From assembly GCA_030390025.1 (NCBI GenBank), contig JASTWF010000034.1:6014001-6078000 (forward strand): 64,000 bases of DNA. The letters run 5' to 3'. The position numbers and the translations under genes are program-made. Numbering within the stretch: the stretch's first letter is position 1; each line of letters opens with the position of its first letter. Below the pieces are notes generated by a model. That model saw only the letters and a program-made list of their open reading frames with translations, searched no databases and was not told the DNA's origin. Source of the stretch: Squalus acanthias. Lineage: Eukaryota. Shown in pieces: positions 8,470 through 37,285 of the stretch.

Positions 8470-9200
8470 CCGGTAGTGGGCGTGGCGATGGCCACTTTGT
8501 GACAATGTTCCAGGCTGCCATGTGATTGGCTCCCGGTTCCTTTGTGATGTCACCTGGAGTCAGGGCCCCGCCCCTGGTTACGGCCCATCAGTGGGATGTC
8601 AGTGTGGGAGGAGCTGGAGTGACAGCTGACACTGGCAGTGAGTTTAGTCAAATTAAATATAATCAGTCACAAAAACAGTCCCACTGTATTCCAGTTACAG
8701 ATTCTGGGATTAATATGAATCATTTTTCTATTGACAGTCTCTGGGAGTGAGCAATATCTCAGGAAGGTGGAGAGAGAGAAGTCGAATCATCGCCACACTG
8801 ACTGGGACTGGAGAAATGTCTCTGGCTTCACAGAGCAGATCTGGTGGGACCGAGACCCCCAGTGTCAGAGATGGGAAAAAACGGGAAGCTTCAACAATGA
8901 TTGGAAAGGGGAGGAACTTTACTCTGAATCCCACCAGTCCAGGAATTTTCCGAGGTGCGATTCTAACCAGATACTGGGAGCTGTTCAACATCTGTTGTCA
9001 GGCTCACCTCAAGCGGCAAGTTGAGCGGAGCTTAACTCAGAGATAAACATTGCCCGTACCTCACCTGGGAGTGTTTGACACTTACAGGTAGTGGGATCTT
9101 TATTCACCCCATGCTGTACCTGAGCTGGTTGAGCTTCATTGGGCAGTGACAGGGGAACTGTATGCTGCATTGAACACATGATGTATCAGAGTTGGTTCTG
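8470..9200 (+). other. Cassette A: promoter motifs, non-coding exon (donor 8638), intron, exon 8738-8908 (ATG 8816, MSLASQSRSGGTETPSVRDGKKREASTMIGK); second donor mutated GT>GG
   Basis: ATTGG 8525, TGATGTCA 8545, GC box ~8564-8574, GTGAGT 8638, tttttctattgacag acceptor 8737; paralogous to copies B-E. Confidence 0.7.
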
Positions 9201-9790
9201 TTTGTGGGTCACTGAACTCGGGCATTGTGGATACAGATCACTGACCCTGGGCCTTGTGGGTACTGGGTGACTGATCCTGGGCATTGTGGGTACAGATCAC
9301 TGACCCTGGGCCTTGTGGGTACTGGGTGACTGATCCTGGGCATTGTGGGTACAGATCACTGATCCTGAATCTTGTGGGTACTGGGTCACTGACCCTGGGC
9401 CTTGTGGGAACGGGTCATGACCTTGGGTATTGTGGGTAAGGTATCTGACCCTCAGGAATAGTGAGTAGAATGTCACTGACTCTGGGCATTGTGGGTACAG
9501 GGGACTGACACTGGGCAGTTTGGGTAAGCTCAATGACCCTGGACATTTTCGGTAAATTATCACTGCCCCTGGGCATTGTGGGTACAGGGTCACTGCCCTT
9601 GGGCATTGTGGATGCATCGTCACTGACCCTGGGCATTGTGGGAACAAGGGACTGAAACTGGGCATTGTGGGTAAGCTCAATGACCCTGGATATTGTCGGT
9701 AAATGGTCACTGCCCCTGGGCATTGTGGGTACAGGGTCATTGCCCCTGGGAATTGTGGATACAGCGTCACTGACACTGGGCATTGTGGGA
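9200..9790. repeat. Degenerate second array of the ~30-bp minisatellite
   Basis: gggcattgtgggtacagggtcactg units with indels, upstream of the second PEX5 exon copy. Confidence 0.9.
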
Positions 9791-9874
9791 AAGGTCCTGA
9801 GGGTGATTACAGCGGCCTGTGGGTGTATAACTTTAAATGGTGTTTGACCTCTGACACTTCCTGTCCCCCCGCAG

Positions 9875-9983
9875 AACCTGCTGTGTCCTGCCCAGCGAAG
9901 TGGGCCCAGGAATACCTGCAACATACAGAAGAGAAACTGTAGCTGGGGGAACACGAGCTGGAGCACAGTCAGGAACAGAATTG
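9875..9983 (+). pseudogene. PEX5: PEX5 exon copy 2 (EPAVSCPAKWAQEYLQHTEEKL*LGEHELEHSQEQNW)
   Basis: ccccgcag|AACCT...AATTG|gtacgg; 109 nt, frame intact, but the same TAG (9940-9942) as copy 1. Confidence 0.88.
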
Positions 9984-10029
9984 GTACGGAGCGGGCAGAG
10001 GGAGGTAGTAATAATGTTAATGTCAGTGT

Positions 10030-11080
10030 AATATAGATGGAGCTCTTTATTGTACCTGCCCCGGGAGCGCTCCATGATGACACTGGGTATAAAGTGGAGG
10101 GACACTGTTAGGGTATTGTAGAGGGTGCTCCTTATTGTACCTGCTCCGGGAGTGCTTGCTGCTTCTACTGGGTATAAAGTGGGGATACTCTGTCAGAGAA
10201 ATGTAGAGGGAACTCTGTATTGTACCAGCCCTGGGAGCGCTCGATGCTGACACAGGATATAAATTGGGGGTACACTCTCAGGGTAATGTAGATGGAGCTC
10301 TGTATTGTACCTGCCCTGGGAGTGCTCGATGCTGACACTGGGTATAAAGTGGGGGTACACTGTCAGGGTAATGTAGAGGGAGCTCTGTATTGTACCTGCC
10401 CTGGGAGCACTCGATGCTGACACTGGGTATAAAGTGGGGGTACACTGTCAGGGTAATGTAGAGGGAGTTCTGTATTGTATCTGCCCTGGGAGCACGCGAT
10501 GCTGACACTGGGTATAAAGTGGGGGTACACTGTCAGGGTAATGTAGAGGGAGTTCTGTATTGTATCTGCCCTGGGAGTGCTCGATGCTGACACTGGGTAT
10601 AAAGTGGGGGTACACTGTCAGGGTAATGTAGAGGGAGTTCTGTATTGTATCAGCCCTGGGAGCACGCGATGCTGACACTGGGTATAAAGTGGGGGTACAC
10701 TGTCAGGGTAATGTAGAGGGAGTTCTGTATTGTATCTGCCCTGGGAGTGCTCGATGCTGACACTGGGTATAAAGTGGGGGTACACTGTCAGGGTAATGTA
10801 GAGGGAGTTCTGTATTGTATCAGCCCTGGGAGCACGCGATGCTGACACTGGGTATAAAGTGGGGGTACACTGTCAGGGTAATGTAGAGGGAGTTCTGTAT
10901 TGTATCTGCCCTGGGAGTGCTCGATGCTGACACTGGGTATAAAGTGGGGGTACACTGTCGGAGTAATGCAGAGGGAGCTCTGTATTGTACCTGCCCTGGG
11001 AGTGCTCGATGCTGACACTGGGTATAAAGTGGGGGTACACTGTCGGAGTAATGCAGAGAGAGCTCTGTATTGTACCTGTT
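10030..11080. repeat. 85-bp satellite, ~12 copies (gctgacactgggtataaagtgggggtacactgtcagggtaatgtagagggagctctgtattgtacctgccctgggagtgctcgat)
   Basis: Near-identical tandem units; ORF track repeats at 85/170-bp offsets; ~1.5 units also at 8345-8470. Confidence 0.97.
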
Positions 11081-12549
11081 TTACCTGATTTCTCTCATTT
11101 CATTTTGGCTTTGTACTGTTTTCTTGGTCACAGTGGACTGAATAATTGAAAGAAACTGTACGCCATTATTATTTATTTTTAAGGTGTCCTACCATGATTG
11201 CCAAAGCAGATAAAAATAGTGTAGGACAAATCAGTTAGTTTATTCACTTAAAGGAGTATTCAGATGACAAAACAGTGATAGAATAATTTATACTACTAAC
11301 TTTTTAAAACACTTAGGAAATCAAACCAAGACAAAATAGCACTGACTTTTCACCTTGAATAACCCTCGTTAACTGTTAAGAATGTGGTACTATGGGTAAT
11401 AGCAGATTAAGTGCCATAAGACAAAAATCTGCTGAAGCTGCATTCATGCATATGTTTTGGTCTTGTCCTGTCCTTCTGATTGTTTCAGAGTTACTCATAG
11501 CCATGGTTCTGAATAGTATTTCTCTTGACGGGGGTATCATTGAAAGACAATTTATTTGTGTAGTTGACAACATGTGCTTATCGCTAATAATCCTATATTG
11601 CAAAATTCAAGTACCACCCCATTGCACTCTGTGTTTAGAGTTACTTTGGGGATAACTTAGCTAAAATTACTTGATCCTTGAGGCATCGAGTTACTCTTTT
11701 TATATGTTCCGATCTCCTTTGGCTTTTTGCCAGCTGTAGAGGGAGTTTCTGAGGTTGCAATTTATCCTTAATGGTCCGCTGTTAATTCAAGTTTGAGAAG
11801 CTGCTTTGTTGTCTTTTAAATTTCTAGTAATTTCACATAATTATATGTTTTATGAGCCAGCATCATGATGGTTAAAGTAACATAATTATTGCCTGTATAC
11901 CCTGGTGCAGTGGAGGACACACAGCTATGCTTGTCTGTCATCAGTTGAAATAGCCAGCAGAAAATGGTAATTTGGATCATGTTATAAAAATCTCATTTAA
12001 GCAGTGGTAAAAAATAGCTTGACACAGACTAGGATTGGCAGTAGAAAGATATTTTTGTATTTATTGGACTTGGGCATCCAACCAAGAAATTACCATTTAT
12101 CTTCCCAATGCTCATACAGTGTGTTTTTATCGAAAATAGGTGATTAATAGCAGTATGTTAAAGGAGGCAAACAGCAAATCTTGGGCTATCATACTGTCTT
12201 CTGACTTAACTGGTGAAAAACATTTGGACTTCTTTTGCATAATTTCCACCTGTTGCTGTATTGAACCCTTTCTTCAGATGACAAATCTGATGTAATCTTT
12301 AAAGGTCCTAGTTATTAAGAATATTAACTAATTTAAAAAATGTTATCTGGCTGCTGGATAGGCAGCAATTCACATTCTAACATTACTAAATTAAGGCGTC
12401 GTAACACACTGCACTGCACCATAGAGACAAGGGTATAGTTTAGTTTGGCAATTCCTTACAATCCAAATGCAAATCTCAACTAGATTGGTAGAAAAGCAGC
12501 AATGGAGATCAGGTGTTAATCCATGTAGGAAATCTAATACTGCAATCTA

Positions 12550-12922
12550 GACAGTGTGTACCATCAACAAGATGCACAGCAACAACTCGCCAAGGCTTCT
12601 TCATCAGCACCTCCAAAACCTGTGACCTCTACCGCTTAGAAGGACAATGGCAGCAGTTGCTTGGGAACACCACCACCTCCACTTTCCCCCTCCAAGTCAC
12701 ACACCATCCTGACTTGGAAAAATATCGCCGTTCCTTCATCGTCGCTGAATCAAAATCCTGGAACTCCCTCCCTAACAGCACTGTGGGAGTGTCTTCCCCA
12801 CATGGACTGCAACGGTTCAAGAAGGCAGCTCACCACCACTCTCTTGAGGGCAATTTGGGATGGATAATAAATGCTGGCCTTGCCAACGACGCCCACATCC
12901 CATGAACAAATAAAAAAATAAA
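12550..12922 (+). mobile_element. 3' end of a second LINE family (CR1/L2 superclade)
   Basis: SKSWNSLPNSTVG...LQRFKKAAHHH followed by an A-rich tail; the same family occurs at 23205-23660 and 45560-47230. Confidence 0.8.
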
Positions 12923-13524
12923 ATTCTCTGCACTGCTCCCACATATCGGTGGAAACATTTTAAATGCATCTGTAACTTACCTTGGGTTAAGTGCTTTTAG
13001 GTGAATTTTCTCACACGAAGGTAGTTTTTAAATTAGCAAAGCTGGATTGGTGCCTTGCATTATAATTGTTCATATGTAGCTCACACAGCTCCATGATATA
13101 GAACTAAGTGCATTATGTAAACAAAGTTTCTATGCTCCAGATCCAAGTGACTAGATTGTCAAAGATGTTGCATAGATCAGTCCAGCAGATCCTACTTATT
13201 GGACGTGTTGTACTTCCTTACAACTCAAGAAAATCCAGTAAATAAAGCACTTGTATTTGTGCACATCCAGCTATAGACAATTCAGAGCATAGGCTAGATA
13301 GCAGTTGACCACTCCAGGGCCATCCAAGGATTGGGTCTTTACCAAACTGGTAAAATTCTGTATGGACATTATCATAGTGAAGTACATAAACTGGGAAGGC
13401 ATCATCTCTGCATCCCAGCACCAAGCTGATATGGCACTGGTGTTGACCAAATCTTGTCCTCCTTTCTGATTAAACTCCTTACTATGTTGGTGGAATGTCA
13501 GAGTGGACATCTTGAACTAATTCA

Positions 13525-14415
13525 GGGTCCAGTGTGAAGAGGACACAAAGAGCCTGCAAAGAGATATAGACCGGTTAAGTGAGTGGGCAATAAGGTGGCA
13601 GATGGAGTATAATGTGGGGAAATGTGAGGCTGTTCACTTTGGTCGGAAGAATAGAAAAACAATATTTTTCAATGGTGAGAAACTGTTAAATGTTGCTGTT
13701 CAGAGAGATATAGGTGTCCTCTTAAAGGAAACATAGAAAGTTAGCATGCAGGTACAGCAAGCAATTAGAAAGACAAATGGCATGTTGGCCTTTATTGCAA
13801 GGGGGTTGGAGTACAAGAGTAAGGAAGTCTTGCTACAATTATATAGGGCTTAGGTGAAACCACACCTGGAGTGTTGTGCACAGTTTTAGTCTCCTTATCT
13901 GAGAAAGGACATACATGCCTTAGAAGCGGTGCAACAAAGGGTCCCCTAGATTGATCCCTGGGTTGAGAGGATTGTCCTATGAGGAGAGATTGAGTAGATT
14001 GGGCCTCTCCTCTCTGGAGTTTAGAAGAATGAAAGGTGATCTCATTAAAACATATAAGATTCTGAGGGGGATTTACAGGGTAAATGCTGAGAGGTTGTTT
14101 CCCCTGGCTAGAGAGTCTCGAACTAGGGGGCATAGACTCAGGATAAGGGGTCGGCCATTTAAGACTGAGATGAGAAGGAATTTCTTCACTCAGAGGGTTG
14201 GAATTCTCTGCACGAAAGGACTGTGAAGACTGAGTCTTTGAGTATATTCAAGGCTGACACAGATAGAATTTTAGACTCTAGGGGAATCAAGGGATATGGG
14301 GATCAGGCGAGAAAGTGAAGTTGAGGTCAAAGATCAGCCATGATCTTATTGAGTGGCAGAGCAGGCTCGAAGGGCTGAATAGCCTACTCCTGCTCTTAAT
14401 TCTTATGTTCTTATG
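13525..14415 (+). mobile_element. CR1 LINE 3' fragment with ttcttatg tail
   Basis: ORF 13951-14226 MIPGLRGLSYEERLSRLGLSSLEFRRMKGDLI...RRNFFTQRV. Confidence 0.92.
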
Positions 14416-15229
14416 CACCTGCCCCGCGAGTGGGAGGGGCTACGGCTACTTTGTGACATTGTTCCAAGCTGCTGTGTGATTGGCTCCCGGTTCCTTTGTG
14501 ATGTCACCTGGAGACAGGGCCCCGCCCCTGGTTACGGCCCATCAGTGGGGTGTCAGTGTGGGAGGAGCTGGAGTGACAGCTGACACTGGGAGTGTTTAGT
14601 CCCAATAAACAGGGCAAAGGGCCGAAAAGAACTATTTAATATTATCTACAGTAATTCAAACACTCATTAATTGCAAATATCTTCATAATAGATACAATCA
14701 CAGACACAAAAACAGTCCCGCTGTATTACAGGTAGAGATTCTGGGATTAATATGTCTCATTTTTCTATTGACAGTCTCTGGGAGTGAGCAATATCTCAGG
14801 AAGGTGGAGAGAGAGAAGTCGAATCATCGCCACACTCACTGGGACTACAGAAATGTCGCTGGGTTCACAGAGCAGATCTGGTGGGACCGAGACCCCCCCG
14901 TGTCGGAGACGGGATAAAACGGGAAGCTTCAACAATGATTGGAAAGGGGAGGAACTTTACTGAGAATTCCAGCAGTCCAGGAATTTGCTGAGGTGCGATT
15001 CTAACCAGATACTGGGAGCTGTTCAACATCTGCCGTTAGGCTCGGCCTTTGATGTGGCAAGTTGAGCGGAGCTTAACTCGGAGATAAACCTTGCCCGTAC
15101 CTCACCCGGGAGTGTTTGACATTTACATGTATAGGGATCTTTATTCTGTATTGACCCCGTGCTGTACCTGAGCTGGTTGTGCTTCATTGGGCAGTGTCAA
15201 GGGAGCTGTACGCTGCATTGAACACCTGC
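14416..15229 (+). other. Cassette B: exon 14775-14946 (ATG 14853) with +1 frameshift; both donors degraded
   Basis: Same promoter motifs and acceptor as A; extra C in gacccccccg; first donor reads gtgttt, second ggggag. Confidence 0.7.
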
Positions 15230-15457
15230 TGTTACGTCAGATAACTACTAGGCACCTGGTCTAATCGTTAAACAACGCTTTAATCAACTGTTTTACAACA
15301 TGGAGAACGAGTTGTGTCCTTCACTAGTTCCGGTTAAGTATGTCCCGCGCAAGCTGGACCCGTGCCCGAGTATTTATACTCTCCTTGGACAGCGCCACCT
15401 ACAGGCCACTCAGTATAATTTCATAAGTCATGAATGACAGATTCATGTCGTGCTACA
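15230..15457 (-). mobile_element. Probable solo LTR (228 bp, TG...CA ends) inserted in the tail of cassette B
   Basis: Absent from cassettes A, D and E; TGTTACG...GCTACA termini; flanks cctgc/cctga; TATAAATA and ATTAAA on the minus strand. Confidence 0.55.
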
Positions 15458-15489
15458 CCTGAGTTAGTTGTGTTGATGAACCAAATAGG

Positions 15490-16210
15490 AGGGAGCTTTA
15501 CTCTGTATCTAACCCGTGCTGTACCTGCCCTGGGAGTGTTTGATGGGACAGTGCAGAGGGAGCTTTACTCTGTATCTAACCCGTGCTGTACCTGCTCTGG
15601 GAGTATTTGATGAGATAGTGTAGAGGGTGCTTTACTCTGCATCTAACCCGTATTACACGTGTCCTGGGATTGAGTTGATGGGATAGTGTAGATGGAATTT
15701 TACTCTATATCTAACCCGTGCTGTACAGGCCCTGGGAGAGTTTGATGGGACAGTGCAGAGGGAGCTTTACTCTGTATCTAACCCGTGCTGTACCTGCCCT
15801 GGGAGTGTTTGATGGGACATTGTAGAGGGAGCTTTACTCTGGTTCTAAACCCTGCTGTGCCTGCCCTGGGAGTGTTTGATGGGACAGTGTAGAGGGAGCT
15901 TTACACTGTATCAAACTTGGTCTGAACCTGCCCTGGGAGTGTTTGATGGGACAGTTTAGTGACAGCTTTACTCTGAATCTGAAACATGCTGTGCCTGCCC
16001 TGGGAATGTTTGATGGGACAGTGTAGAGGGAGCTTTACTCTGTATCTAACCCCTGCTGTTCCTGTCCTGGGAATGTTTGATGGGACAGTGTAGAGGGAGC
16101 TTGACTCTGTTTCTAACCCCTGCTGTTCCTGTCCTGGGAATGTTTGATGGGACGTTATTGAGGGGGCTTTACTCTGTATCTAAACCGTGCTGCTCCTGCC
16201 CTGAAGTGTT
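15490..16210 (+). repeat. 67-bp satellite (gggacagtgtagagggagctttactctgtatctaacccgtgctgtacctgccctgggagtgtttgat)
   Basis: Period 67 (gggagcttta at 15491 and 15558). Confidence 0.95.
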
Positions 16211-16211
16211 T

Positions 16212-21569: not shown

Positions 21570-22610
21570 AACTATTCTGCCCAATTGGTTTGTGCCGGTG
21601 TTTATTCCCCACGCAAGCCTCCTCTCACCCCTCTTCATCTAATTCTATTAGCATAACCTTATATTCCTTTCTCCCTCATGTGTTTATCTAGCTTCTCCTT
21701 AAATGCATCTGTACTACCCCCTCCACTACTCCCTGTGGTAGCGAGTTCCACATTCTCACCTCTCTTTGGGTGAAGAATTTATCCTGAATTCTCCATTGGA
21801 TTTATTAGTGACTATCTTATATTGATGATCTCCAGTTTTGGACTCCCACAAGTGGAAACATTTTCTCCACGATCACCCTTTATAACCTTCTCATAATCTT
21901 AAAGACCTCTATCCGGTCATCCATCAGCATTCTCTTTCTTCAAGAGAAAAGAGACCCAGCCTGTTCAGCCAATCCTGAGAAGTATATCCTCTCAGTTCTA
22001 GGATCATCCTTACAAATCTCCTTCTCCAGTGCCTCTATATTAAGAACATAAGAAATAAGAGCAGGAGTAGGCCATTGGGCCCCTCGTAATAATATGGAGA
22101 CCAGAGCTTTTCACAGTACTCCAAGTATGATCTAACCCAGGGTCAGTACAAGTTTAACATAACCTCCCTGCTTTGCAATTCTATCCCTCTGGATATGAAC
22201 CCCAGTGCTTTGTTTGTTTTGTATGGCCCTATTAACCTCCATTGCTACTTTAGTGTTCTGTGTATCTGTACCCCGAAATCGCATTGCTCCTCTACCCCAT
22301 TTATACTCTTATTTTCAAAGCAGTATCTGGCCTCCTTATTCTTCCTACCAAAAGGCGCCACCTCACACTTATCTATATTGGAAATTCATTCGCCATTTAC
22401 ACTTCCATTCTGCAAGTTTATTAATGTCTTCTTGCATTATGTCACAGTCTTCATCAATAGTAACTGTACCGCCCAATTTGGTATCATTGACAAATTTTGA
22501 AATTGTACTTCAAATTCCCGAATCGAAATTGTTTATGTAAATTGTGAACAGCAGCGGTCCCAGCACCGATCCCTGTGGAACACCACATTCCACCTTTTGC
22601 CAGAGTGAAA
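21570..22610 (-). mobile_element. CR1 LINE 3' portion, decayed
   Basis: WQKVECGVPQGSVLGPLLFTIYIN (ORF 22510-22740) plus CR1 3' sequence. Confidence 0.88.
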
Positions 22611-22629
22611 AGCTGCTCTCTGTTTTGTG

Positions 22630-23200
22630 GCATTCAATGGCGGTGTGTTTACCCACGATCCCCCGCGTGGCAGAAAGTGCCCAATCAATGACTACAGGAG
22701 TCCAGTGCGCAGGCGTGGGACCGGGGAGTGCTCCGAGCATGCGCAGTGCGAGTGGTGCAGACGACGCGCTTGCGGCAGCAGGAACAATGCGCGGAGAGAG
22801 AAATCGCCAACGTTTCAGGTCGATAACTTCGTCAGAGCATTTGCTGTTGTACTAATGGCCGAACAAACGATTCAAGAGGCGGCAGGATATTCTGGGGGCC
22901 GGGGAGGAACAGGCGCCGCGCGGGGTCTGGGAAGCTTCACAAACACCCGGCCTCAGGCCCCGAATAAGACCCCGCGGGGCCTCGTGCTTGCGCCGCAGCG
23001 CCAGGTCCGGCCGCTCGGGTGAGCGGGGCGACTGTCCGCCAACCTGCTGAAGACATTGTCCCCGCCGACAGGCCCGTGTTACCCCGGCAACCGGCCACCA
23101 TCTTGGTGAAGGAAGGCGGGACTTTTCCCCGCGCCGCCATCTTGGAAAGGGCGGGGTCAGGGCGCATGCGCGGCCCTCAGTGCAAGTGCAGCAGAAGCAC
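22630..23200. promoter_or_regulatory. CpG island resembling a housekeeping or bidirectional promoter (NRF1, YY1, GC boxes)
   Basis: TGCGCAGGCG ~22706, GCATGCGCA ~22737, GCGCATGCGC ~23162, GCCGCCATCTTG ~23133, GGGCGGGG ~23149; the minus strand reads AAGATGGCGGCG. Confidence 0.7.
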
Positions 23201-23684: not shown

Positions 23685-24065
23685 CGGAGACGGGGCTGAT
23701 TGTACACCCTGTGTTCATGCCCAGTGAGACTGCACACCAGGAGCAGAGCCTGGTCAATGTGACCCTGTGACGCCTCGAGTGGGAGGGGCTCCGGCCGCTT
23801 TATGACATCGCTCCTTGCTGCTGTGTGATGTCCCCTGGAGAAAGTGCCCCGCCGCTGGTTATGGCCCATCAGTGGGATGTCAGTGTGGGAGGAGCTGGAG
23901 TGACAGCTGACACTGGGAGTGAGTTTTCCCAATAAACAGTGCAATGGACAGAATAGAACAATATAATAAAGTTAGTAATTCAAACACTCATTAATTGCAA
24001 AAATAATCACATTGAATATAAATTTGGTCACAAAAATGCCCCCCCCCCTGTATTCTGGGATTAAT
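23685..24065 (+). other. Cassette C (partial): upstream region, non-coding exon and intron, truncated before the acceptor
   Basis: Aligns to 24572-24950; ends at tattctgggattaat, followed by an L2 fragment. Confidence 0.75.
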
Positions 24066-24320: not shown

Positions 24321-24571
24321 ACTGACTGATATTCTGGTCTTTTCCGTACAGTATGATCCCAGCCCCAGACGCATCCCTCACTGTGGAGAGAGAGAGAGAG
24401 GCAGAGACAGTGAGGGAGCAGATACGTAGAGAAGGAAAGAAATACTGGGATAGAGTTTGACGTTTAGTAGGTGCTATAGCACAAACTGGGTAATTGTGAA
24501 TCAGCCATCCATTTTACACCGATGGAAATAAAACTCGGGAGAGATGTAGGGCAGGATCCCGGTTCATTCCC

Positions 24572-25430
24572 GGAGACGGGGCTGATTGTACACCCTGTGT
24601 TCATGCCCAGTGAGACTGCACACCAGGAGCAGAGCCTGGTCAATGTGACCCTGTGACACCTCGTGTGGGAGGGGCTCCGGCCACTTTGTGACATCGTTCC
24701 TGGCTGCTGTGTGATGTCACCTGGAGACAGGGCCCCGCCCCTGGTTACGGCCCATCAGTGGGATGTCGGTGTGGGAGGAGCTGGAGTGACAGCTGACGCT
24801 GGGGGTGAGTTTAGTCCCAATAAACAGGGCAATGGACAGAAAAGAACTATTCAATATTAAATAAGTAATTTAAACACACTGATTAATTGCAAAAATAATC
24901 AAATTGAATATAACTATGGTCACAAAAATGCTCCCCCTGTATTCTGGAATGAATATGAATCATTTTTCTACAGACAGTCTCTGGGAGTGAGCAATATCTC
25001 AGGAAGGTGGAGAGAGAGAGAAGTCGAATCATCGCCACACTGAATGGGACTGGAGAAATGTCGCTGGGTTCACAGAGCAGATCTGGTGGGATCGAGAGCC
25101 CCAGTGTCGGAGACGGGATAGAACGGGAAGCTTCAACAATGATTGGAAAGGTGAGGAACTTTACTGAGAATCCCATCAGTCCAGGATTTTGCTGAGGTGA
25201 GAGTCTAACCAGATACTGGGAGCTGTTCAACATCTGCCATCAGGCTCGGCCTTTGATGTGGCAAGTTGAGCGGAGCTTAACTCGGAGATAAACCTTGCCC
25301 GTACCTCACCCGGGAGTGTTTGACACTTGCATGTAGTGAGATCTTTATTCTGTATTCATCCCATGCTGTACCCGAGCTGGTTGTGCTTCATTGGGTAGTG
25401 TCAAGGGAGCTGTACGCTGCACATGCTGTA
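24572..25430 (+). other. Cassette D: donor 24805, exon 24978-25150 (ATG 25058, MSLGSQSRSGGIESPSVGDGIEREASTMIGK) with intact AAG|gtgagg donor; CCAAT segment deleted
   Basis: Paralog of A, B and E; splice signals read directly. Confidence 0.72.
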
Positions 25431-25900
25431 TTAGAGGGAGCTTTGCATGTCACCCGCGCTGTACCTGCCCTGCGAGTGTTTGAGTGGACAGGGCAGAGGA
25501 AGGTTTAGTCTGTATCTCTCTATCGAACCAGTGCTGTTCGTGCCTTTGGACTATTTGATTGGGCATTGTAAAGGGAGCTTTACTCTGTATCTCTCTATCT
25601 AACCCGTGCTATACCTGCCCTTGGACTGTTTGATTGGGCAGTGTAAAGGAAGCTTTACTCTGTATCTCTCGATCTAACCGGTGCTATACCTGCCCTTGGA
25701 CTGTTTGATTGGGTAGTGTAAAGGGAGCTTTACTCTGTATCTTTCGATCTAACCCGTGCTGTACCTGCCCTTGGACTGTTTGATTGGGCAGTGTAAAGGG
25801 AGCTTTACTCTGTATCTCGCTATCTCACCCGTGCTATACCTGCCCTTGGACTATTTGATTGGGCAGTGTAAAGGGAGCTTTACTCTGTGTATAACTCATG
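25430..25900 (+). repeat. 75-bp variant of the 67-bp satellite
   Basis: Units carry an extra ~8-nt ctctctat/ctctcgat segment and ccttggactgtttgattgggcagtgtaaaggg. Confidence 0.9.
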
Positions 25901-27059: not shown

Positions 27060-27392
27060 GACGCTTTATAAAGGGTTATAAAGGATTATGCTGGGTTATA
27101 AATTATTATAAATGAATATAAAGTATTATAATGATATATAAATGTTGATATTGGGATATAAAGTTTTATGATGAATTGTTAAGGAATATAAAGGGCTGTA
27201 ATGATCGACAAAGGCTTATAAAGTGTTATAATGATTGACAAAGGATTATAAAGGGATTTGAATGGGGTACAAAGTGATGCAAAATATGATAAAGGGACAT
27301 GATCCTTTATAAATCATTACAATCCTTAATAACCCGTTATACACCTTTTGTAAATGATTATTAAGGATTCTAACGTTATAAAGAGTTATAAG
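27060..27392. repeat. AT-rich low-complexity ttataaag/ttataatg tract
   Basis: Degenerate short-period repeat. Confidence 0.75.
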
Positions 27393-28287
27393 GCTCCCAC
27401 TACACTGTCCCATTAAACAGTCCCAGTGCAGGTACAGCATTTGTTAGATACTTAGTAAAGATCCCTCTGCACTGTCCCATCAAACACTCGCAGGTTAGGT
27501 ACAGCATTGGTTAGATACAGAGTAAACCTTCCTCTACACTCTCCCAATGCACACTCCCAGGGCAGGTTGAGTATGGGTTAGATACAGAGTAATGCTCCCT
27601 CCACATTATGCCATCAAACACTCCCAGGTCATGTACAGCACGGGTTACCTACAGAGTAAAGCTCTCTCTACACTGTGCCAACAAGCATTCCCAGGCAGCT
27701 ACAGCACAAGTTAGATGCAGATTAAAGCACCCTCTACACTGCCCCATCAAACACGCCCAGGGCAGGAACAGTACGGTTTAGATACAGATTAAAGATCCCT
27801 CTACAGAATCCCATCATACATTCCCAGGGCAGGTACTGCAATGGTTAGATATAGAATGAAGCTCCCTCTACACTGTCCCATCAAACACACTCAGAGCAAG
27901 TACAGCACAGGGTAGATACAGAGTAAAGCTCCCTCTTCACTGTCCCATCAAACACTCGCAGGGCAAGAAGTGCATGGGTTAGGTACAGAGTAAAGCTCCC
28001 TTTACACTGTCCTATCAAAAACTGCCAGGGCAGGGACAGCACGGGTTAAGTACAGAGTAAAGCTCCCTCTACACTTTCCCATCAAACATCCCCATGGCAG
28101 GTACAGCCCAGGTTAGATGCAGAGTAAAGCTCCCTCTACACTGTCCCATGAAACACTCCCAGTGCAGGTGCAGCACGGGTTAGATACAGAGTAAAGCTTC
28201 CTCTACACTGTCCCATCAAACTTTCTAAGGCAGGTACAGCCCGCGATAGATACCGAATAAAGCTCCCTCTGGACTATCCCATCAAAC
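27393..28287 (-). repeat. 67-bp satellite in inverted orientation
   Basis: ctacactgtcccatcaaacactcccagggcaggtacagcacgggttagatacagagtaaagctccct is the reverse complement of the consensus. Confidence 0.95.
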
Positions 28288-31200
28288 TTCCTGTGTCCCT
28301 GACGACCATGTGTGTGGGAAATGTATCCAGCTGCAGCTACTGACGGACCGCATTGTGGCGCTGGAGCTGCGGATGGATGCATATTGGAGCATTTGCGACG
28401 CTGAGAACGTCGTGAATAACACGTTTAGCGAGTTGGTCACACCGCAGGTAAAGGGTGTACAGGCAGGAAGTGAATGGGTGACCATCAGGCAGCGTAAGAG
28501 GTGCAGGCACGTAGTGCAGGGGTCCCCTGTGGCCATCCCCCTCTCAAACAGATATACCACTTTGGATGCTGTTGGGGGGGATGACTTATCAGGGGAAGGC
28601 GGCAGCAGCCAACTTCCTGGCACCATGGGTGGCTCTGCTGCACAGGCTGGGAGGAAAAAGTGTGGAAGAGCTATAGTGATAGGGGATTCAATTGTAAGGG
28701 GAATAGATAGGCGTTTCTGCGGCCGCAATCGAGACTCCAGGATGGTGTGTTGCCTCCCTGGTGCAAGGGTCAAGGACGTCTCGGAGCGGCTACAAAACAC
28801 TTTGGAGTGGGACGGCGAACAGCCAGTTGTCGTGGTGCACATAGGCATCAACGATATAGGTAAAAAACGGGATGAGGTCCTAAAAGCAGAATATAGGGAG
28901 TTAGGAGGTAAATTAAAAAAGAGGACCTCAAAGGTAGTAATCTCAGGATTGCTACCAGTGCCACGTGCCAGTCAGAGTAGAAATAGAAGGATATTTCAAA
29001 TGAATACGTGGCTAGAAGAATGGTGCAAGGGGGAGGGATTCAAATTCCTTGGACATTGGAACCGGTTCTGGGGGAGGTGGGACCAGTACAAACGGGACGG
29101 TCTGCACCTGGGCACTGCCGGGACCGATGTCCTAGGGGGAGTGTTTGCTAGTGCTGTTGGGGAGGGTTTAAACTAAAGTGGCAGGGGGTTGGGAACCTGA
29201 GCAGGGAGACAGAGGAAAGGGAAATAAGGATAAAAGCTAAAGACAGGAAGGAGAAAAACAAAAGTAGAAGGCAAAGAACTCAACGGTTTAAATCAAACAT
29301 GGTCACAGTAAATAATAATTCATATAGGTCTGAGAGCGTAAAAAAAACAAGCCTGAAGGCTTTGTGTCTTAATGCAAGGAGCATTCCGAACAAGGTAAAT
29401 GAATTAGCTGCGCAAATACAGGTAAATGAATACGATTTGATTGGGATTACAGAAACATGGCTCCAGGGTGGCCAAGGCTGGGAACTCAACATCCAGGGTT
29501 ATTCAATATTTAGGAAAGATAGGCAACAAAGAAAGGGAGGTGGGGTAGCATTGCTGGTTAAAGAGGGGATTAACACAATTGAAAGGAAGGATATTAGCTC
29601 TGATGATGCGGAATCTGTATGGGTAGAACTGAGAAATAACAAGGGGCAGAAAACGTTAGTGGGAGTGGTATATAGACCTCCAAAAAGTAATACGGAGGTT
29701 GGGGACGGCATTAAAAGGGAAATTAGAGAAGCATGCAGTAAGGGCACAGCAGTCATCATGGGTGACTTTAATTTACATATAGATTGGGCTAACCAAATTA
29801 GTAAAAATACTGTGGAGGAGGAATTCCTAGAATGTTTGCGAGATGGTTTTCTGGAACAATATGTAAAGGAACCAACCAGAGATCAGGCCATCTTAGACTG
29901 GGTATTATGTAACGAGAAAGGATTAATTAGCAATCTTGTTGTACGATGCCCCTTGGGTCAGAGTGATCATAATATGATAGAATTCTTCATTAGGATGGAG
30001 AGTGAAGTAGTTGAATCAGAGACTAGGGTCCTGAATTTAAATAAAGGAAACTACGATGGTTTGAGGCGCGAATTGGGTAGGATTGATTGGGGAATGTCAC
30101 TCAAGGGGTTGACGGTGGATAGGCAATGGCAAACATTCAAAGACTGCATGGAGGAACTACAGAATTTGTACATCCCAGTGTGGCATAAGAATAAAACAAA
30201 AAGGGTGACTCAACCGTGGTTAACAAGGGAAATTAGGGATAGCATAAGATCCAAGGAGAGGGCATATAAATTGGCCAGAAAAAGTGGTAGCCCTGAGGAT
30301 TGGGAGCAGTTTAGGATTCAACAAAGGAGGACAAAGGGATTAATTAAGAAGGGGAAAATAGAATATGAAAGTAAGCTTGCTGGGAACATAAAAACTGACT
30401 AAGAGCTTTTATAGATATGTGAAGAGAAAAAGATTAGTGAAATCAAGTGTAGGTCCCTTGCAGTCAGAAGCGGGGAAGTTATAATGGGGAACAAAGAAAT
30501 CCCAGCCCAAGTAAATGCATATTTTGGTTCTGTCTTCACAAAGGAGGACACAAATAACCTCCCAGAGATGTTGGAGAATATACGGTCTGATGAAAGGGAG
30601 GAACTGAAAGAAATCAGTATTTGCAGGGAAATGGTGTTGGGGAAATTGACGTTATTGAAGGCCGATAAATCCCCAGGGCCTGATAATCTACATCCTAGGG
30701 TACTTAAAGAAGTGGCCCTAGAAATAGTAGATGAATTGCTGATCATCTTCCAACATTCGATGGAATCTGGAACTGTACCCATGGATTGGAGGGTAGCTAA
30801 TGTTACCCCACTATTCAAAAAGGGTGGTAGAGAGAAAGCGGGGAATTACAGACCGGAAAGCCTGACATCGGTAGTGGGGAAAATGCTAGAGTCCATTATA
30901 AAGGATGTAATAGCTGAGCATTTGAAAAACAGTGACAGGATCGGACAAAGTCAACATGGATTTACAAAAGGTAAATCGTGCTTGACTAATCTACTGGAAT
31001 TTTTTGAGGATGTAACTGGGAAAATAGATAAGGGAGAACCAGTAGATGTGGTGTATTTGGTCTTTCAAAAGGCTTTCGATAAGGTCCCGCATAAGAGATT
31101 AGCGGGTAAAGTTAAGGCACATGGGATTGGGGGCAAGGTATTGACTTGGATAGAGAACTGGTTGGCGGACAGAAAGCAGAGAGTAGGAATTGATGGGTCT

Positions 31201-32252
31201 TTTTCCGAGTGGCAAGCAGTGACTAGTGGGGTACCGCAGGGATCGGTCCTGGGACCCCAGCTATTCACAATATACATTAATGATCTAGATAAGGGAATTA
31301 AATGTAATATCTCCAAGTTTGCAGATGACACAATGCTGGGTGGGAGTGTGTGCAGCGAGGAGGATAGCGAGAGACTCCAGGATGATCTGGACAGGTTGGG
31401 TGAGTGGGCAGAAGCGTGGCAGATGCAATATAACGTGGAGAAGTGCGAGGTTATCCGCTCTGGTGTCAAAAACAGAAAGGCAGACTATTATCTGAATGGC
31501 AATAGATTGGGAGAAGGGGAAGTGCAACGAGACCTGGGTGTCCTTGTGCACCAGTCGCTGAAAGTAAGCATGCAGGTGCAGCAGGCGGTGAAGAAGGCAA
31601 ATGGTATGTTGGCCTTCATAGCGAAAGGGTTTGAGTATAGGAACAGGGATGTCCTGCTGCAGTTGTACAGGGCCTTGGTGAGACCACACCTTGAGTACTG
31701 TGTGCAGTTTTGGTCGCCTTATCTGAGGAAGGATGTTCTTGCCATGGAAAGAGTTCAGCGAAGATTCACAAGGCTGATACCTGTGATGGCAGGAATGACA
31801 TATGAGGAGAGATTAGGTCGATTGGGCTTATACTCACTGGAGTATAGAAGATTGAGAGGGGATCTCATCGAAACATAAAATTCTGACAGGTCTGGACAAA
31901 CTAGATGCAGGAAGAATTTTCCCGATGGTCGGAGAGTCCAGAAACAGGGGTCATAATCTACGGATAACGGGTAAACCATTTAGGACAGAAATGAGGAGTA
32001 ATTTCTTCACCCAGAGAGTGGTGAACCTGTGGAATTCTCTACCACAGAAGGTAGTTGAGGCGAGGTCATTAAATATATTCAAGGATGAGTTAGATATATT
32101 TCTTAAAGCTAAAGGTATCAAGGGATATGGGGAGAAGGCAGGTACAGGGTACTGAGTTTAGATGATCAGCCATGATCTCATCGAATGGCGGAGCAGGCTC
32201 GAGGGGCCGAATGGCCTACTCCTGCTCCTATCTTCTATGTTTCTATGTTTCT
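28288..32252 (+). mobile_element. Near full-length CR1 LINE: ORF1 (SGNH/GDSL esterase, 28310-29176) and ORF2 (APE + RT, 29299-32155, disrupted)
   Basis: IVIGDSIVRG, VHIGINDIG, DGLHL; LNARSI, ITETWL, GDFN, SDHN; NYRPESLTS, GVPQGSVLGP, FADD; ttctatgt tail; ORF2 broken at ~30400 and ~31876; aaac on both flanks. Confidence 0.97.
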
Positions 32253-33190
32253 AAACACTCCCAGGTCAGGTACAGCGCAGGTAAGATACAGAGTAATGTT
32301 GCCTATACACTGTTGCATCAAACACTCTCAGGCCAGTTACAGCACGGGTTAGATGCAGAGTAAAGATCCATCTACAGAATCTCATCAAACACTCCCAGGG
32401 AGTACAGCAATGGTTAGATACAGAGTAAAGCTCCCTCTAAACTGCCCCATCAAATACTCCCAGGGCAGGGACAGCACGGGTTAGATACAGAGTAAAGCTC
32501 CCACTGCACTGTCCCATGAAACACTCGCAGGGCATTTAGTGCATGGGCTAGGTACAGAGTAAAGCCCCCGCTACACTGTCCCATCAAAATCTGCCAGGGC
32601 AGGTACAGCACGGGTTAGATTCAGAGTAAAGCTCCCTCTACACTGTCCAATCAAACACTCCCAGGGCAGGTACAGCACGGGTTAGATACATAGTAAAGCG
32701 CCCTCTACATTGTCCCATCAAACAATCCCAGGGCAGGTTCAGCAATGTTTTGAAAGAGTAATGCTCCCTCATCACTGTCGCATTAAATACTCGCAGGGCA
32801 GGTAGTGCACGGGTTAGGTATAGAGTAAAGCTCCCTCTACACTGTCCCATCAAACACTCCCAGGGCAGATACAGAACAGTTTAGATACAGAGTAAAGCTC
32901 CCTCTACACTGTCCCATCACACACTCCCAGGGCAGGTACAGCACTGGGATTGATGCAAAGTAAAGCTCCCTCTACACTGTTCCTTCAAATATTCCCAGGG
33001 CAGGTACAGCACGGGTTAGATATAGAGTAACGCTCCCTCTACACTGTTCCATCACACACTCCCAGATCAGGTACAGCACGGGTTAGATACAGTGTAAAGC
33101 TCGCTCTACACTGTCCCATCAAACACTCCCAGGGCAGGTACAGCACGGGTTAGATACAGAGTAAAGCTTCCTCTACACTGTTCCATGAAA
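32253..33190 (-). repeat. 67-bp satellite, inverted; continuation of 27393-28287
   Basis: Same unit, resuming in register after the CR1 tail. Confidence 0.95.
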
Positions 33191-36100
33191 TTAGAGAGAT
33201 GAATGCGTAACTCAAAGACTGGTATGGGAGAAATTGGTTTCGCTTCCTGGGGCTCTAGCACCAGTACTGGGGAAAGTGGGATCTGTACCGTTGGGTTGGT
33301 CTTCACCTGAACCGTGCTGGGACCAGTGTTCTGGCGAGTCATATAACTAGGGCGGTAGAGAGGGCTTTCAACTTAATATTGGGGGCCAGGGATCAAATCT
33401 GGGAAGATGTGGTAAATCAAAGAGTAGAAACAAGACAAGAGAGAAAGGTATTAATATGGGAAATGATAAACAGACCATGACGGGAAGGGATAGAGAGTAC
33501 AAATCTAAGAGTAAATCAACAGATAAGGCTAAAGGTTACAAAAATAATAAAAGGACAAAACTAAAGGCTCTGTATCTGAATGCACGTAGCATTCGAAACA
33601 AAACAGATGAACTGATGGCGCAAATAGAATTAAATAAGTACAATCTGATAGCCATTACAGAGACATGGCTGCAGGATGACAAACATTGGGATCTGAATAT
33701 TGAAGGGTACATGATATTTAGGAAAAAGTGGAGGGGTGGCTCTGTAAATTAATAATGGTATTAGCGCAATAGAGGGATGACTTAAGTTCAGGAAACCAGG
33801 ATGTAGAAGCGGTTTGGGTAGAGATGAGAAATGATGAAGGCAAGAAGTCACTTGTGGAAGTGGTGTACAGGCCCCCTAACAGTAACCACACGTTAGGATG
33901 GAGTATCAAGGAAGAAATAATGGGAGCTTGTCAGAAAGGTACGGCAATAATCATGGGGGATTTTAATCTACATATAGATGGAAAAATCAGATGGGCAAAG
34001 GTAGCCTAGATGAGGATTTCATAGAATGTTTTTGGGACAGTTTCTTAGAACAGCACGTTCTGGAGCCAACCAGAGAGCAGGCTATAGTAGACCTGGTATT
34101 GTGAAACAAGATCAGATTAATTAATGACCACATAGTGAAGGTGCCCCTAGGTCGCAGCGATCAGAATATGATTGAATTTTACATTCAGTTTGAGGGAGAG
34201 AAGATTTGGTCCAAGACTAGTTTTTTCTAACTTGAATAAGGGCAATTATGAGGGCATGATAGCAGAGCTAGCTCAAGTGAACTGGCAAACTGGAGTAAGC
34301 GATAGGTCAATAGAGCTGCAGTGGCAGACTTTTAATGGGATAGTTCAGAATACACAGAATAGATCCATTCCAACGAGAAAGAAAAATTCCAAGGGGAGGA
34401 CCCACCATCCGTGGTTAACTAAAAAAGTTAAAGATAGTATCGAAAGTTAAAAAAAAAGCATATAATGGTGAAAAGATGGGTGGCAGGTCAGAAGATTGGA
34501 CAGAATATAAACAAACAGCAAAGAATTACTAAAAGATTAATAAGGAGAGAAAAATGAGAGTACGAGAGAAAGCTAGCTAGAAATATAAAAACAGATAGTA
34601 AGAGTTTCTATAGATATTCTAAAAAGAAAAGAGTTAACAAAGGGAGCGTTGGTCCTATAAAAAGTGAGTCTGGGGAATTAATAATGGAAAATAAGGAGAT
34701 GGCAGTTGAATTGAACAGGTATTTTGCATCGGTCTTCACTATAGAGGATACAAGTAACATCCCAGAAACAGCTGTAAATCAGGAAATGGAAGGGAGGGAG
34801 GAAGTCAAGAAAATTACAATCACCAGGGAAGTAGTACTGAGGAAATTGTTGGAGATGCGGGCTGACAAGTCCCCGGGTCCTGATGGACTTCATCCTAGGG
34901 TCTTAAAAGAAGTAGCTAGTGAGATAGTTGATGCGTTGGTTTTAATTTTCCAAAATTCCCTAGATTCGGGGAGGGTTCCATTAGATTAGAAAATAGCGAT
35001 TGTAACTCCTTTATTCAAAAAGGGAGTGAGACAGAAAGCAGGAAACTACAGGCCAGTTAGCTTAACACCTGTCTTAGGGAAGATGCTAGAAACTATTATT
35101 AAAGACGTTATAGCAGGGCACTTGGAAAAGTTCAAGGTAATCAGGCAGAGTCAGCATGGTTTTGTGAAAGGGAAATCATGTTTAACCAATTTATTGGAGT
35201 TCTTTGAGGAAGTAACATGTGCTGTGGATAAAGGGGAACCGGTGGATGTACTGTACTTAGATTTCCAGAAGGCATTTGATAAGGTGCCACATCAAAGGTT
35301 ATTTCGAAAATAAAAGCTCATGGTGTAGGGGGCAACATATTGGCATGGATAGAAGATTGGCTAGCTAACCGGAAACAGAGTGTAGGCATAAATGGGTCAT
35401 TTTCTGGTTAGCAAATGTAATGTGTAGTGTGCCACAGGGATAATGCTGGGGCCTCAACTTTTTACAATTTATATAAATGACTTGGATGAAGGGACCGAAG
35501 GTATGGTTGCCAAATTTGCTTATGACAAAAAGATAGGTAGGAAATTAAATTGTGAAGCGGACATATGGAGGCTACAAGGGTATATAAATAGGTTAAGTGA
35601 GTGGGCAAAGATCTGGCAAATAGAGTATAATGTGTGAAAATGTGCAATTGTGCATTTGGGCTGGAAACAAAAGATAAGCATATTATCTAAATGGTGAGAG
35701 ATTGCAGAGCTTTGAGGTGCAGAGGGTTCTGGGTGTCCTAGTGCATGAATCACAAAAGGTTAGTATGCAGGTACTGCGAGTAATTAGGAAAGCTAATAGA
35801 ATGTTAACGTTTATTGCGAGGGGAATTGAATACAAAAGTAGGGAGTTTATGCTTCAGTTATAGAGGGCATTGGTGAGACCACATCTGGAGTACTGAGTAC
35901 AGTATAAGTCCCCTTATCTAAGGAAGGATGTAAATGCGTTGGAAGCAGTTCAGAGAAGGTTTACTAGACTAATACCTGGAATGGGCGGGTTGTCTTATGA
36001 GGAAAGGTTGGACAGGCTAGGCTTGTATCCACTGGAGTTTAGAAGAGTAAGAGGTGACTTGATTGAAACCTATAAGATCCTGAGGGGTCTTGACAGGGTG

Positions 36101-36438
36101 GATGCGGAGAGGATGTTTCCTCTTGTGGGAGAATCACGAACTAGGGGTCACTGTTTAAAAATAATGGAGCGCCCATTTTAGACAGAGATGAGGAGAATGT
36201 TTTTTCTCAGAGGGTCGCGAGTCTTTGGAACTCTCTTCCTCAGAGGGCGGTGGAAGCAGAGTCTTTGAATATTTCAAGGCGGACGTAGATAGATTCTTGA
36301 TAAGCAAGGGAGTGAAAGGTTATCGGGGGTTGGACGGGAATGTGGAGTAATCAGATCAGCCATGATCTTATTGAATGGCGGAACAGGCTTGAGGGGCCGA
36401 ATGGCCGACTCCTGTTCCTAATTCGTATGTTCGTTATG
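33190..36438 (+). mobile_element. CR1 LINE (end of ORF1 to 3' tail), multiply frameshifted
   Basis: LYLNARSIRNK, ITETWL, KSPGPDGLHPRVLKE, DFQKAFDKVPH; ttcgtatg tail. Confidence 0.95.
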
Positions 36439-37285
36439 TACCTGCCCCGGGGGGATTGGGAGGGGCTTGGCCGCTTTAACATTTTTAAAGCTGCTCTTTG
36501 ATTGATTGGCTCCCTGCTCCTGTGTGATGTCACTTGGAAACAGGGCCCCGCCCCTGGTTACGGCCCATCAGTGGGATGTCAGTGTGGGAGGAGCTGAAGT
36601 GACAGCTGACACTGGCAGTGAGTTTAGTCCCAATAAACAGGGCAAAGGGCTGAAAGGAACATTTTAATAATGTAAGTAATTCAAATACACATTAATTGCA
36701 AATATAATGAAATTAGATACAATCCCAGTCACAAAAACAGTCCCACTGTATTCCAGGTACTGGATCTGGGATTAATATGACTGATTTTTCTATTGACAGT
36801 CTCTGGGAGTGAGCAATATCTCAGGAAGGTGGAGAGAGAGAAGTCGAATCATTGCCACACTCACTGGGACTGGAGAAATGTCGCTGGTTTCACAGAGCAG
36901 ATCTGGTGGGATCGAGACCCCCAGTGTCGGAGACGGGATAAAACGGGAAGCTTCAACAATGATTGGAAAGGTGAGGAACTTTACTGAGAATTCCACCAGT
37001 CCAGGATTTTGCCGAGGTGAAAGTCTAACCAGATACTGGGAGCTGTTCAACATCTGCCGTCAGGCTCGGCCTTTGATGTGGCAAGTTGAGCAGAGCTTAA
37101 CTCAGAGATAAACCTTGCCCGTACCCCACCCGGGAGTGTTTGACACTTGCATGTAGAGGGATCTTTATTCTGTATTCACCCCATGCTGTACCCGAGCTGG
37201 TTGTGCTTCATTGGGTAGTGTCAAGGGAGCTGTACGCTGCATTGAACACATGATGTATCAGAGTTGGTTGTGTTGATGAACCAAA
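36439..37285 (+). other. Cassette E (most intact): CCAAT 36505, TGATGTCA, GC box, donor 36618, exon 36800-36970 (ATG 36878, MSLVSQSRSGGIETPSVGDGIKREASTMIGK), donor gtgagg
   Basis: All motifs and both GT donors present; 93-nt open coding segment. Confidence 0.75.

Follow-up and report, generated by a model that had tools for sequence, protein, structure and literature searches.

Five same-strand copies of one 0.8-kb unit lie in the window, by which we mean the whole 64,000-nt stretch of Squalus acanthias DNA analysed here, raising the question of what kind of array this is. The initial annotation read it either as promoter-plus-first-exon cassettes, possibly serving one gene in the manner of UGT1A or the clustered protocadherins, or as repeated satellite-mediated capture of one gene's 5' end. 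Because the unit's exon behaves as an internal one, appears to be joined to itself and is multi-copy in related sharks, we consider the array probably to be an RNA module of repeated exons, surrounded by gene debris; a set of five alternative promoters of one gene is the less likely reading. Of the earlier interpretation, the exon and its splice sites stand and satellite-borne duplication fits, but the promoter/first-exon architecture is not supported.

Copies of the unit

All five copies are on the plus strand as annotated (Table 1), and copy E as query finds A to D with E-values of 0 to 5e-53, which is far beyond chance. Against the E unit, B matches at 89% over 884 nt, D at 89% over 754 nt, C at 83% over 248 nt and A in two pieces (93% and 90%), and copies C and D have extra upstream sequence in common (90% over 387 nt). 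Identity among the window's copies is 95-96% in the exon, 79-92% in the 5' intron and 88-96% in the 3' intron.

The lesions reported earlier are present: E is intact, D lacks CCAAT, A has a dead second donor, B is frameshifted with degraded donors (the first reads GTGTTT) and C is truncated. What was called intron 1 measures 100, 183, 173 and 182 nt, in line with the claimed 100-190 nt, and the 31-codon frame reads as first given, with its phase-0 AAG|GTGAGG donor in D and E. Judging by their sites, D and E are the sole copies in the window that could undergo splicing. Since the donors of A and B are dead and C has no exon, much of the array is debris.

Table 1. Positions of the unit copies and neighbouring features in the window
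Feature	Position	Strand	Remarks
Copy A	8460..9202	+	between duplicated PEX5 pseudo-exons; 5' intron down to 100 nt
Copy A exon	8738-8908	+	171 nt; donor AAG|GG, dead
Copy B	14414..15232	+	immediately behind CR1-type LINE 3' end
Copy B exon	14775-14946	+	172 nt (+1); dead donor AAG|GG, as in A
Copy C	23685..24065	+	5' part only; ends ~24065, before exon, at repeat fragment
Copy D	24571..25436	+	acceptor AG and donor intact
Copy D exon	24978-25150	+	173 nt, +2 nt upstream of ATG; donor AAG|GTGAGG
Copy E	36436..37288	+	best preserved unit
Copy E exon	36800-36970	+	171 nt, 57 codons; donor AAG|GTGAGG; ATG at 36878
GC-rich block	36503..36617	+	reverse CCAAT, TGATGTCA, GC box, GTGAGT word
CpG island	22600..23200	+	CpG o/e 0.93, GC 0.63
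67-bp satellite, 3' flank of E	37093..37465	+	degenerate units first, then regular
Two 67-bp satellite arrays	27389-28287, 32253-33190 (region 27389..33190)	-	around long CR1-type LINE
PEX5 exon copy	7044..7176	+	80-82% identical to shark PEX5 proteins; context of copy A
PEX5 pseudo-exon	8207..8315	+	carries a stop and a frameshift; immediately 5' to copy A
PEX5 pseudo-exon, second copy	9875..9999	+	identical stop; 3' of copy A

The exon in related organisms

The comparison covers four of the 11 listed related runs: three of RNA type by the tool's guess (X1-X3), from two related organisms, A and B, and one genome-size run (X11) from another organism. The runs come from relatives (best share of words 0.32) and from two studies; the seven left out include X8, the sole run recorded as RNA (word share 0.06).

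In X1-X3, exon depth is about 1170-1360 vs 53-70 in the downstream intron, a ratio of 19-25 (1.7 in X11), contig depth being a poor measure of expression and no measure of copy number. The depth edges in the relatives' contigs coincide with the predicted splice sites; the exon and both sites are real and are used in these organisms. All three RNA-type runs, and not X11, also contain a self-joint at the exon's splice sites (36968>36798, back 171), whose depths of 47, 361 and 284 are about 4%, 27% and 21% of exon depth, in contigs that do not tell whether the joint is linear, between tandem copies, or a back-splice. Tandem same-strand copies provide a collinear explanation, so we infer that the joint is linear; the window itself holds a collinear source in D and E, which share a strand and have intact sites.

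The exon has other partners as well. At least three distinct upstream loose ends are joined to it among the 24 of 286 listed, one partner being common to organisms A and B, and its downstream partners are several (consensus agreement 0.57 among five contigs). It behaves as an internal exon, fed by at least three upstream exons and by its own copies, and joining copies to one another runs counter to the mutually exclusive use of variable exons. In X11, 1,168 contigs fall on 861 bp and 73 have one exon variant in common; at least tens of variants of the unit are present in that run.

One upstream partner has a counterpart in the window's CpG island. Positions 23080-23109, located 1,866 nt 5' of D and on its strand, agree with this partner at 29 of 30 bases, a match that none of 100 shuffles produced by chance, and 23080-23111 is homologous to an exon that a relative splices to the 171-nt exon. 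After 23111 comes GA, not GT, so this donor lacks its GT in the window; an alternative candidate donor, CGG|GTGAGC, is at 23018 in the island. The other three of the four loose-end motifs, the downstream partner included, are not in the window (at best 11 mismatches of 30). The island also contains words that we take to be YY1-like (23134) and NRF1-like (23162), and its homology to a splice partner was overlooked in the initial annotation.

The GC-rich block

Upstream of the exon is a GC-rich block that had been read as promoter and exon 1. Its words are largely as described: the reverse CCAAT is in A, B and E and not in C or D, and four of the five units (C is the exception) carry TGATGTCA and the GC box without a mismatch. 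None of the five has a TATA. The block is 89-100% identical among copies, vs 79-92% for the intron behind it.

X1 shows a small depth bump here (99 vs 13), but so does the genomic run (7237 vs 1469), and after scaling to the latter, the claimed exon 1 is at intron level in the relatives' contigs. The joint 36617>36800 is absent among the 15 of 25 joints listed, in assembled contigs that show neither transcript starts nor proof of absence, and two contigs continue unspliced across 'intron 1'. With intron-level depth and no splicing among the joints listed, the claim of a short non-coding exon ending at GTGAGT finds no support in the relatives. Words resembling a C box and a D box, noticed by eye at a spacing of about 86 nt, had suggested a snoRNA in the block, an idea that gained no support from the searches described below.

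Surroundings of the array

The 3' flanks of A, B and D decay into 67-bp satellite much as that of E does. Spread inside satellite DNA, the second option of the initial annotation, fits for this reason, and satellite recombination may have carried the unit. The two minus-strand arrays run in the opposite orientation to the satellite behind E, and the inverted arms measure 100-297 nt with a complementarity of 73-89%.

Downstream of E, the window has 26,712 bases, including 17,518 of interspersed repeat and 3,818 of satellite. The unique pieces of these 26.7 kb contain no long ORF, gene body or constant exons, and the initial annotation had recognised no downstream exon after the individual copies. 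An exon at 48.3 kb, which we take to be GPR139-like (Pfam and PDB gave no confirmation), was rejected as a shared body, having its own ATG and an upstream TATAAA.

The LINE ends that precede B and E are only 72% alike, vs 96% for the exons, and on this ground 3' transduction of the unit by one CR1 was likewise rejected. No target-site duplication or terminal repeat is evident at the unit ends, where the longest shared words are 5-10 nt and satellite-like. DNA pattern scans of viral sequences and prokaryote genomes and one of two scans of metagenomes gave 0 matches; the other metagenome scan gave one locus (L001), discarded as a chance match because the overlap is 22-23 nt.

Coding potential and RNA structure

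In A and E, the whole exon is free of stops in two frames, also across the self-join, an observation missing from the initial annotation. Among proteins over about 100 aa, frame 0 gave 0 matches at E<=10 among 25 candidates and frame 2 gave 0 with one candidate, whereas a control, the neighbouring 49-aa PEX5 pseudo-exon, finds 54 proteins, shark ones among them. The 31-aa peptide had been guessed to be a NACHT-LRR N-terminus; with 0 of 25 in a protein set containing shark models, and with the control exon matching, that guess is without protein-level support. Searches with the exon found nothing in Pfam and no match in Atlas (best score 0.77). A full HMMER scan gave 16 weak matches (best 5e-10, 31-44% identity, 4-10 stretches each), which were set aside; the three of 16 inspected are unrelated repeat proteins of bacterial type.

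pN/pS is 0.93-1.31, i.e., about 1, from 15 substitutions with dead copies included. Expressed contigs carry 1-nt deletions in the 31-codon frame, at 36923 in all three RNA-type runs and at 36912 in X1, among the 12 of 29 indels listed, the other 17 of which may include compensating ones. The exon is most likely non-coding.

Small structured RNAs fared no better. The units have 0 Rfam matches at gathering score (only sub-threshold ones), the best fold among 98 windows in a hairpin/miRNA search (z -2.2) is not repeated in D, and 0 of 34 pairs show compensatory change. An intronic miRNA hairpin or snoRNA in each unit thus gains no support from folds, Rfam or covariation. The exon itself has no stable fold (z +0.77).

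Proposed mechanism and alternatives

We propose that the core is an internal exon of 171 nt, most likely non-coding, which would exist in many copies in this cartilaginous fish group, having been duplicated with about 0.3 kb of flank per side inside satellite- and LINE-rich DNA. Transcription would begin from distinct upstream exons, of which some would lie in CpG islands resembling the one at 22.6-23.2 kb. Such an exon would be spliced into one copy, often onward to another same-strand copy, and then on to downstream exons outside the window. The product may be a repeated-exon lncRNA or the 5' leader (5'UTR exon) of a multi-copy gene family. As a bolder extension, a high-copy satellite-borne module with many promoters might yield abundant functional tandem-module RNAs and, at its boldest, a 171-nt circle of exactly 57 codons that has an ATG, lacks stops in two frames as copies A and E do, and might be translated without end into a repeat polypeptide; this we regard as distinctly unlikely.

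The main rival is a back-splice, in which the exon, at one locus or several, would close on itself into an abundant single-exon circular RNA. A joint at the exact donor and acceptor, present in X1-X3 and absent from X11 (another organism), would suit a circle, as would the inverted satellite arrays on both sides of E and the two frames without a stop across the self-join in A and E. However, tandem same-strand copies explain the joint collinearly, and the exon has no stable fold. For so small a circle, a joint share of 21-27% of exon depth would also be high if the libraries were ordinary ones. Such collinear tandem-copy cases are filtered out before non-collinear RNA is called, according to PMC4132752. 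We judge the circle unlikely. The unit might also be a transposon relic or a dispersed repeat of no known class whose good splice sites trap it, unselected, in many unrelated transcripts. High copy number in a relative, several partners on both sides and a debris-filled window speak for a relic, but neither a target-site duplication nor a terminal repeat is evident, one upstream partner is common to two organisms and the exon is better kept than the 5' intron (though not clearly better than the 3' intron), making it very unlikely.

If the exon were coding, it could be a 31-aa N-terminus (e.g., of shark NLRs) or a 57-aa module in a tandem-exon protein. It is symmetric (57 codons, 3n long), joins to itself in frame and has two open frames in A and E, but the empty protein, Pfam and Atlas searches, the weak HMMER matches, a pN/pS of about 1 and the frame-breaking indels in expressed contigs leave little room for this. 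Least probable of all is the array in which each cassette is a promoter with its own first exon or exons, spliced alternately to a shared body beyond the window. UGT1A and the clustered protocadherins resemble the shark array in having same-strand serial cassettes that end in a splice donor. Their variable first exons, however, are large and coding, are chosen singly and splice to constant exons, none of which was seen in the shark array. In favour of such a locus, the five units carry promoter-like words, and their GC-rich block is more conserved than the adjoining intron and has its small bump in X1. Against this stand the same bump in the genomic run, the intron-level scaled depth, the lack of a 36617>36800 joint among the 15 of 25 listed and the two contigs unspliced across 'intron 1', and the exon behaves as an internal one, its copies are joined to one another and it has no protein match. 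Three of the five copies are, moreover, unable to splice out, and no constant region is found in the window.

Comparison with known systems

Word searches of papers, which are blind to sequence and leave out supplements, found no description of this element. To our knowledge, repeated-exon non-coding transcripts and core duplicons have been described mainly in mammals. If our preferred reading of a repeated-exon module is true, a shark counterpart that is abundant, common to at least two related organisms, multi-copy and interspersed with pieces of unrelated genes (PEX5 in the window) would be a tractable model for exon shuffling and new transcripts in satellite-rich shark DNA. The finding would be ordinary if the module were simply a 5' leader exon duplicated within a multi-copy family already known.

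C19MC-HG of primates has a non-coding exon of about 120 nt in repeat-bounded units of 400-700 bp, and its copies are spliced in series, giving an RT-PCR ladder (PMC2691840). The shark array likewise has a repeated, probably non-coding exon in repeat-bounded units, with copy-to-copy joints in relatives' contigs that may reflect serial splicing. C19MC is, however, one locus of about 100 kb with 46 miRNA genes and an intronic pre-miRNA in each unit (PMC2691840), whereas no pre-miRNA was found in the shark units and their copies are interleaved with fragments of other genes.

In human, the RRD repeat accounts for seven of the 13 exons of the FIRRE lncRNA; it is mostly restricted to a single locus and functions in nuclear retention and hnRNPU binding (PMC4820808). 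A single repeat thus supplies several exons of a spliced non-coding RNA in FIRRE and, on our reading, several exons of one RNA in the shark; the two differ in that RRD is largely local and functional, while the shark module is fed by several different first exons. The LCR16a/NPIP core duplicon is a 20-kb segment in Alu-rich DNA that carries a complete, positively selected coding gene, and core duplicons produce fusion transcripts in which an ORF is seldom kept (PMC7419210). The shark unit resembles it as a transcribed segment that recurs amid duplicated pieces of unrelated genes, in DNA rich in GC and repeats, and, on our reading, enters fusion transcripts that rarely retain an ORF. It differs in measuring 0.8 kb, in holding a single, apparently non-coding exon and in lying in satellite DNA.

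Copies of the unit

Sequence comparison within the window bore out the five same-strand copies (A to E) of the initial annotation. Two of them, A and B, are surrounded by PEX5 pseudo-exons, and of C only a stump remains, ending before the 171-nt exon (the unit's second exon), so that a large part of the array amounts to debris left by duplication. A and B also have a dead donor, AAG/GG, in common. The exon and the flank behind it hold 14 informative sites: eight set A and B against D and E, and three support each of the other splits. The copies thus form sister pairs, with some mosaicism. Between A, B, D and E, the exon is 95-96% identical, the claimed exon 1 (the GC-rich block ending at GTGAGT) 91-98%, the 5' intron that separates the two 79-92% and the opening 180 nt of the 3' intron 88-96%. 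Each full copy's 3' flank decays into a 67-bp satellite, and the unit ends of the window copies have no clear target-site duplication.

Positions of features in the window
Feature	Position	Strand	Remark
171-nt exon, copy A	8738-8908	+	sequence comparison
171-nt exon, copy B	14775-14946	+	sequence comparison
171-nt exon, copy D	24978-25150	+	sequence comparison
171-nt exon, copy E	36800-36970	+	sequence comparison
Duplicated non-satellite segment	1-322; 1795-2118		0.32 kb, 91% identity
Second CpG island	4950-5400		o/e 0.8-1.0; holds several CCAAT words in reverse; lies 1.6 kb before the PEX5 exon
Partial PEX5 pseudogene	7044-7176; 8207-8315; 9875-9999		
CR1-type LINE 3' tails	14414; 36434; 20828; 32252		adjoin 67-bp satellite or satellite-like words
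67-bp satellite between D and E	27389-33190	-	plus strand elsewhere
Near full-length CR1-type LINEs	28288-32249; 54977-58921		87% alike across 3,971 nt; disrupted ORF1- and ORF2-like frames
Satellite-like piece	37156-37207		
47-bp tandem array	39170-41080		41 copies, 93%
Exon with ATG and GTAAGT donor	48258-48407 (and 48368-48655)		TATAAA at 47928

Exon depth and joints in related organisms

Eleven public runs contain part of unit E; the highest share of its words in any run is 0.32, so the species of the window is not among them. Four of the eleven were aligned to 36430-37290 at 80% likeness: X1 from organism A and, from a single study of organism B, X2 and X3, all three presumed to be RNA (102-137 million letters), together with the genome-size X11 from organism D (2,700 million letters). 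Because every run consists of contigs, depth gives a rough measure and a missing feature is no proof of absence; introns of the same stretch and X11 served as controls.

The 171-nt exon is a genuine internal exon whose splice sites are in use, and it exists in many copies. Its depth in X1-X3 is about 1170-1360, or 19-25 times that of the downstream intron (1.7 times in X11), and the depth steps coincide with its predicted acceptor and donor. Depth in the 171-nt exon exceeds that in the claimed exon 1 by factors of 12, 107 and 124 in X1-X3 (1.4 in X11); scaled to X11, the claimed exon 1 stands at intron level (13.6, 1.8 and 1.5 per thousand vs 9.1, 9.3 and 12.1 for the 3' intron). Joint 36617>36800 is not among the 15 of 25 contig joints listed, and two contigs (X1 record 1, X2 record 17) cross the 5' intron unspliced at depth 8-12.

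The exon's end is joined to its own start (36968>36798, 171 nt) at depths of 47, 361 and 284 in X1, X2 and X3 (about 4%, 27% and 21% of exon depth); X11 contigs lack this joint. These copy-to-copy joints in two organisms are real. The exon also has several upstream partners, one being an exon of a CpG island with homology to the window at 23.1 kb. In the 24 loose ends listed out of 286, at least three different sequences precede the acceptor, and one upstream sequence is common to X1 and X2. One from X3 matches 23080-23109 with 1 mismatch (0 chance matches in 100 shuffles). The matching place belongs to the array's strongest nearby CpG island (o/e 0.93) and, on the same strand, precedes D's exon by 1,866 nt. 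Directly after the end of the homologous exon the window has GA, not GT; the word GTGAGC at 23019 may be an alternative donor. Behind the donor, five loose-ended X2 contigs have a consensus agreement of 0.57, so there is more than one downstream partner. The downstream-partner motif and two other upstream motifs do not occur in the window.

In X11, 1,168 contigs fall on 861 bp and 73 carry one same exon variant, so at least tens of distinct copies exist. The depth ratio suggests 400-700 copies, summed depth being no copy number.

Interpretation

The most likely reading, and a reasonably probable one, is that an internal non-coding exon has been repeated and its copies are spliced one after another. 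The unit would spread by recombination between satellite arrays; transcripts would begin at a CpG start, pass through one or more copies and continue into exons beyond the window, the possible path here being CpG island > D > E > outside exons. A back-splice yields the same joint, and E is flanked by inverted satellite arrays, as would suit an exon circle; tandem copies, however, are the collinear alternative, to be excluded first (PMC4132752), and we think the circle unlikely. An unselected trapped repeat is somewhat less likely again. The parent transcript may prove ordinary. The initial annotation had also proposed a variable-promoter array of the UGT1A or protocadherin type. The array lacks two tested features of such loci, and that proposal is the least probable.

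A coding module is scarcely more probable. The exon has 57 codons with no stop in two frames in A and E, self-join included, but the protein search (proteins of about 100 aa or longer) gave 0 of 25 candidates in frame 0 and 0 of 1 in frame 2. As a control, the 49-aa PEX5 exon retrieved 54 proteins, three shark genera among them. A full HMMER scan with the exon gave only weak multi-stretch matches, and the three read were unrelated. With small numbers and dead copies included, pN/pS among window copies is 0.93 in frame 0 (11 nonsynonymous, 4 synonymous), 1.31 in the ATG part and 0.95 in frame 2. In expressed contigs, one-base deletions break into the 31-codon frame at 36912 (256 of 770 depth in X1 contigs) and 36923 (all three RNA-type runs); these come from 12 of 29 indels listed, with compensating changes possible among the other 17. 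The exon is probably non-coding.

Because C19MC-HG-like repeated-exon hosts contain intronic miRNAs (PMC2691840), we searched the unit for small RNAs. Rfam gave nothing at gathering score (sub-threshold matches only), folding gave no recurring hairpin, and the 171-nt exon folded no better than shuffles. The unit resembles C19MC-HG and FIRRE (PMC4820808) in its repeated spliced exon, and small core duplicons in recurring among other genes' fragments (PMC7419210), but belongs to none of these. A word search of listings and abstract starts, not a search by sequence, turned up no account of the element; it may already stand in automatic annotations, as a UTR exon or an uncharacterised RNA.

Neighbouring gene fragments and repeats

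In a protein search, the best matches of exon 7044-7176 are shark PEX5 proteins (80-82% identity), so the window is cartilaginous-fish DNA. One PEX5 pseudogene exon has intact splice sites, and a later one is duplicated on both sides of copy A, both copies stopping at the same conserved Trp codon. The 48-kb exon presumably resembles the first exon of shark GPR139-like receptors; Pfam and PDB gave this candidate no confirmation, and no second exon was seen in the window. Its 3' end recurs in decayed form.

The window comprises about 33.0 kb of interspersed repeat (to judge by the ORFs, mainly pieces of CR1-type LINEs), 15.0 kb of satellite, 3.7 kb of cassettes and 12.3 kb of unique sequence. 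Although just 72% alike, the LINE tails in front of B and E stop at one and the same cassette position, which suggests independent insertions at a preferred site. On its minus strand, the 47-bp array resembles part of CR1's reverse-transcriptase region repeated over and over, and has a 679-codon open frame. The satellite's strand switch between D and E marks an inverted or inserted block. In X1, X2 and X3 alike, the satellite-like piece at 37 kb is embedded in one and the same long, unrelated contig; another transcript thus contains the satellite.
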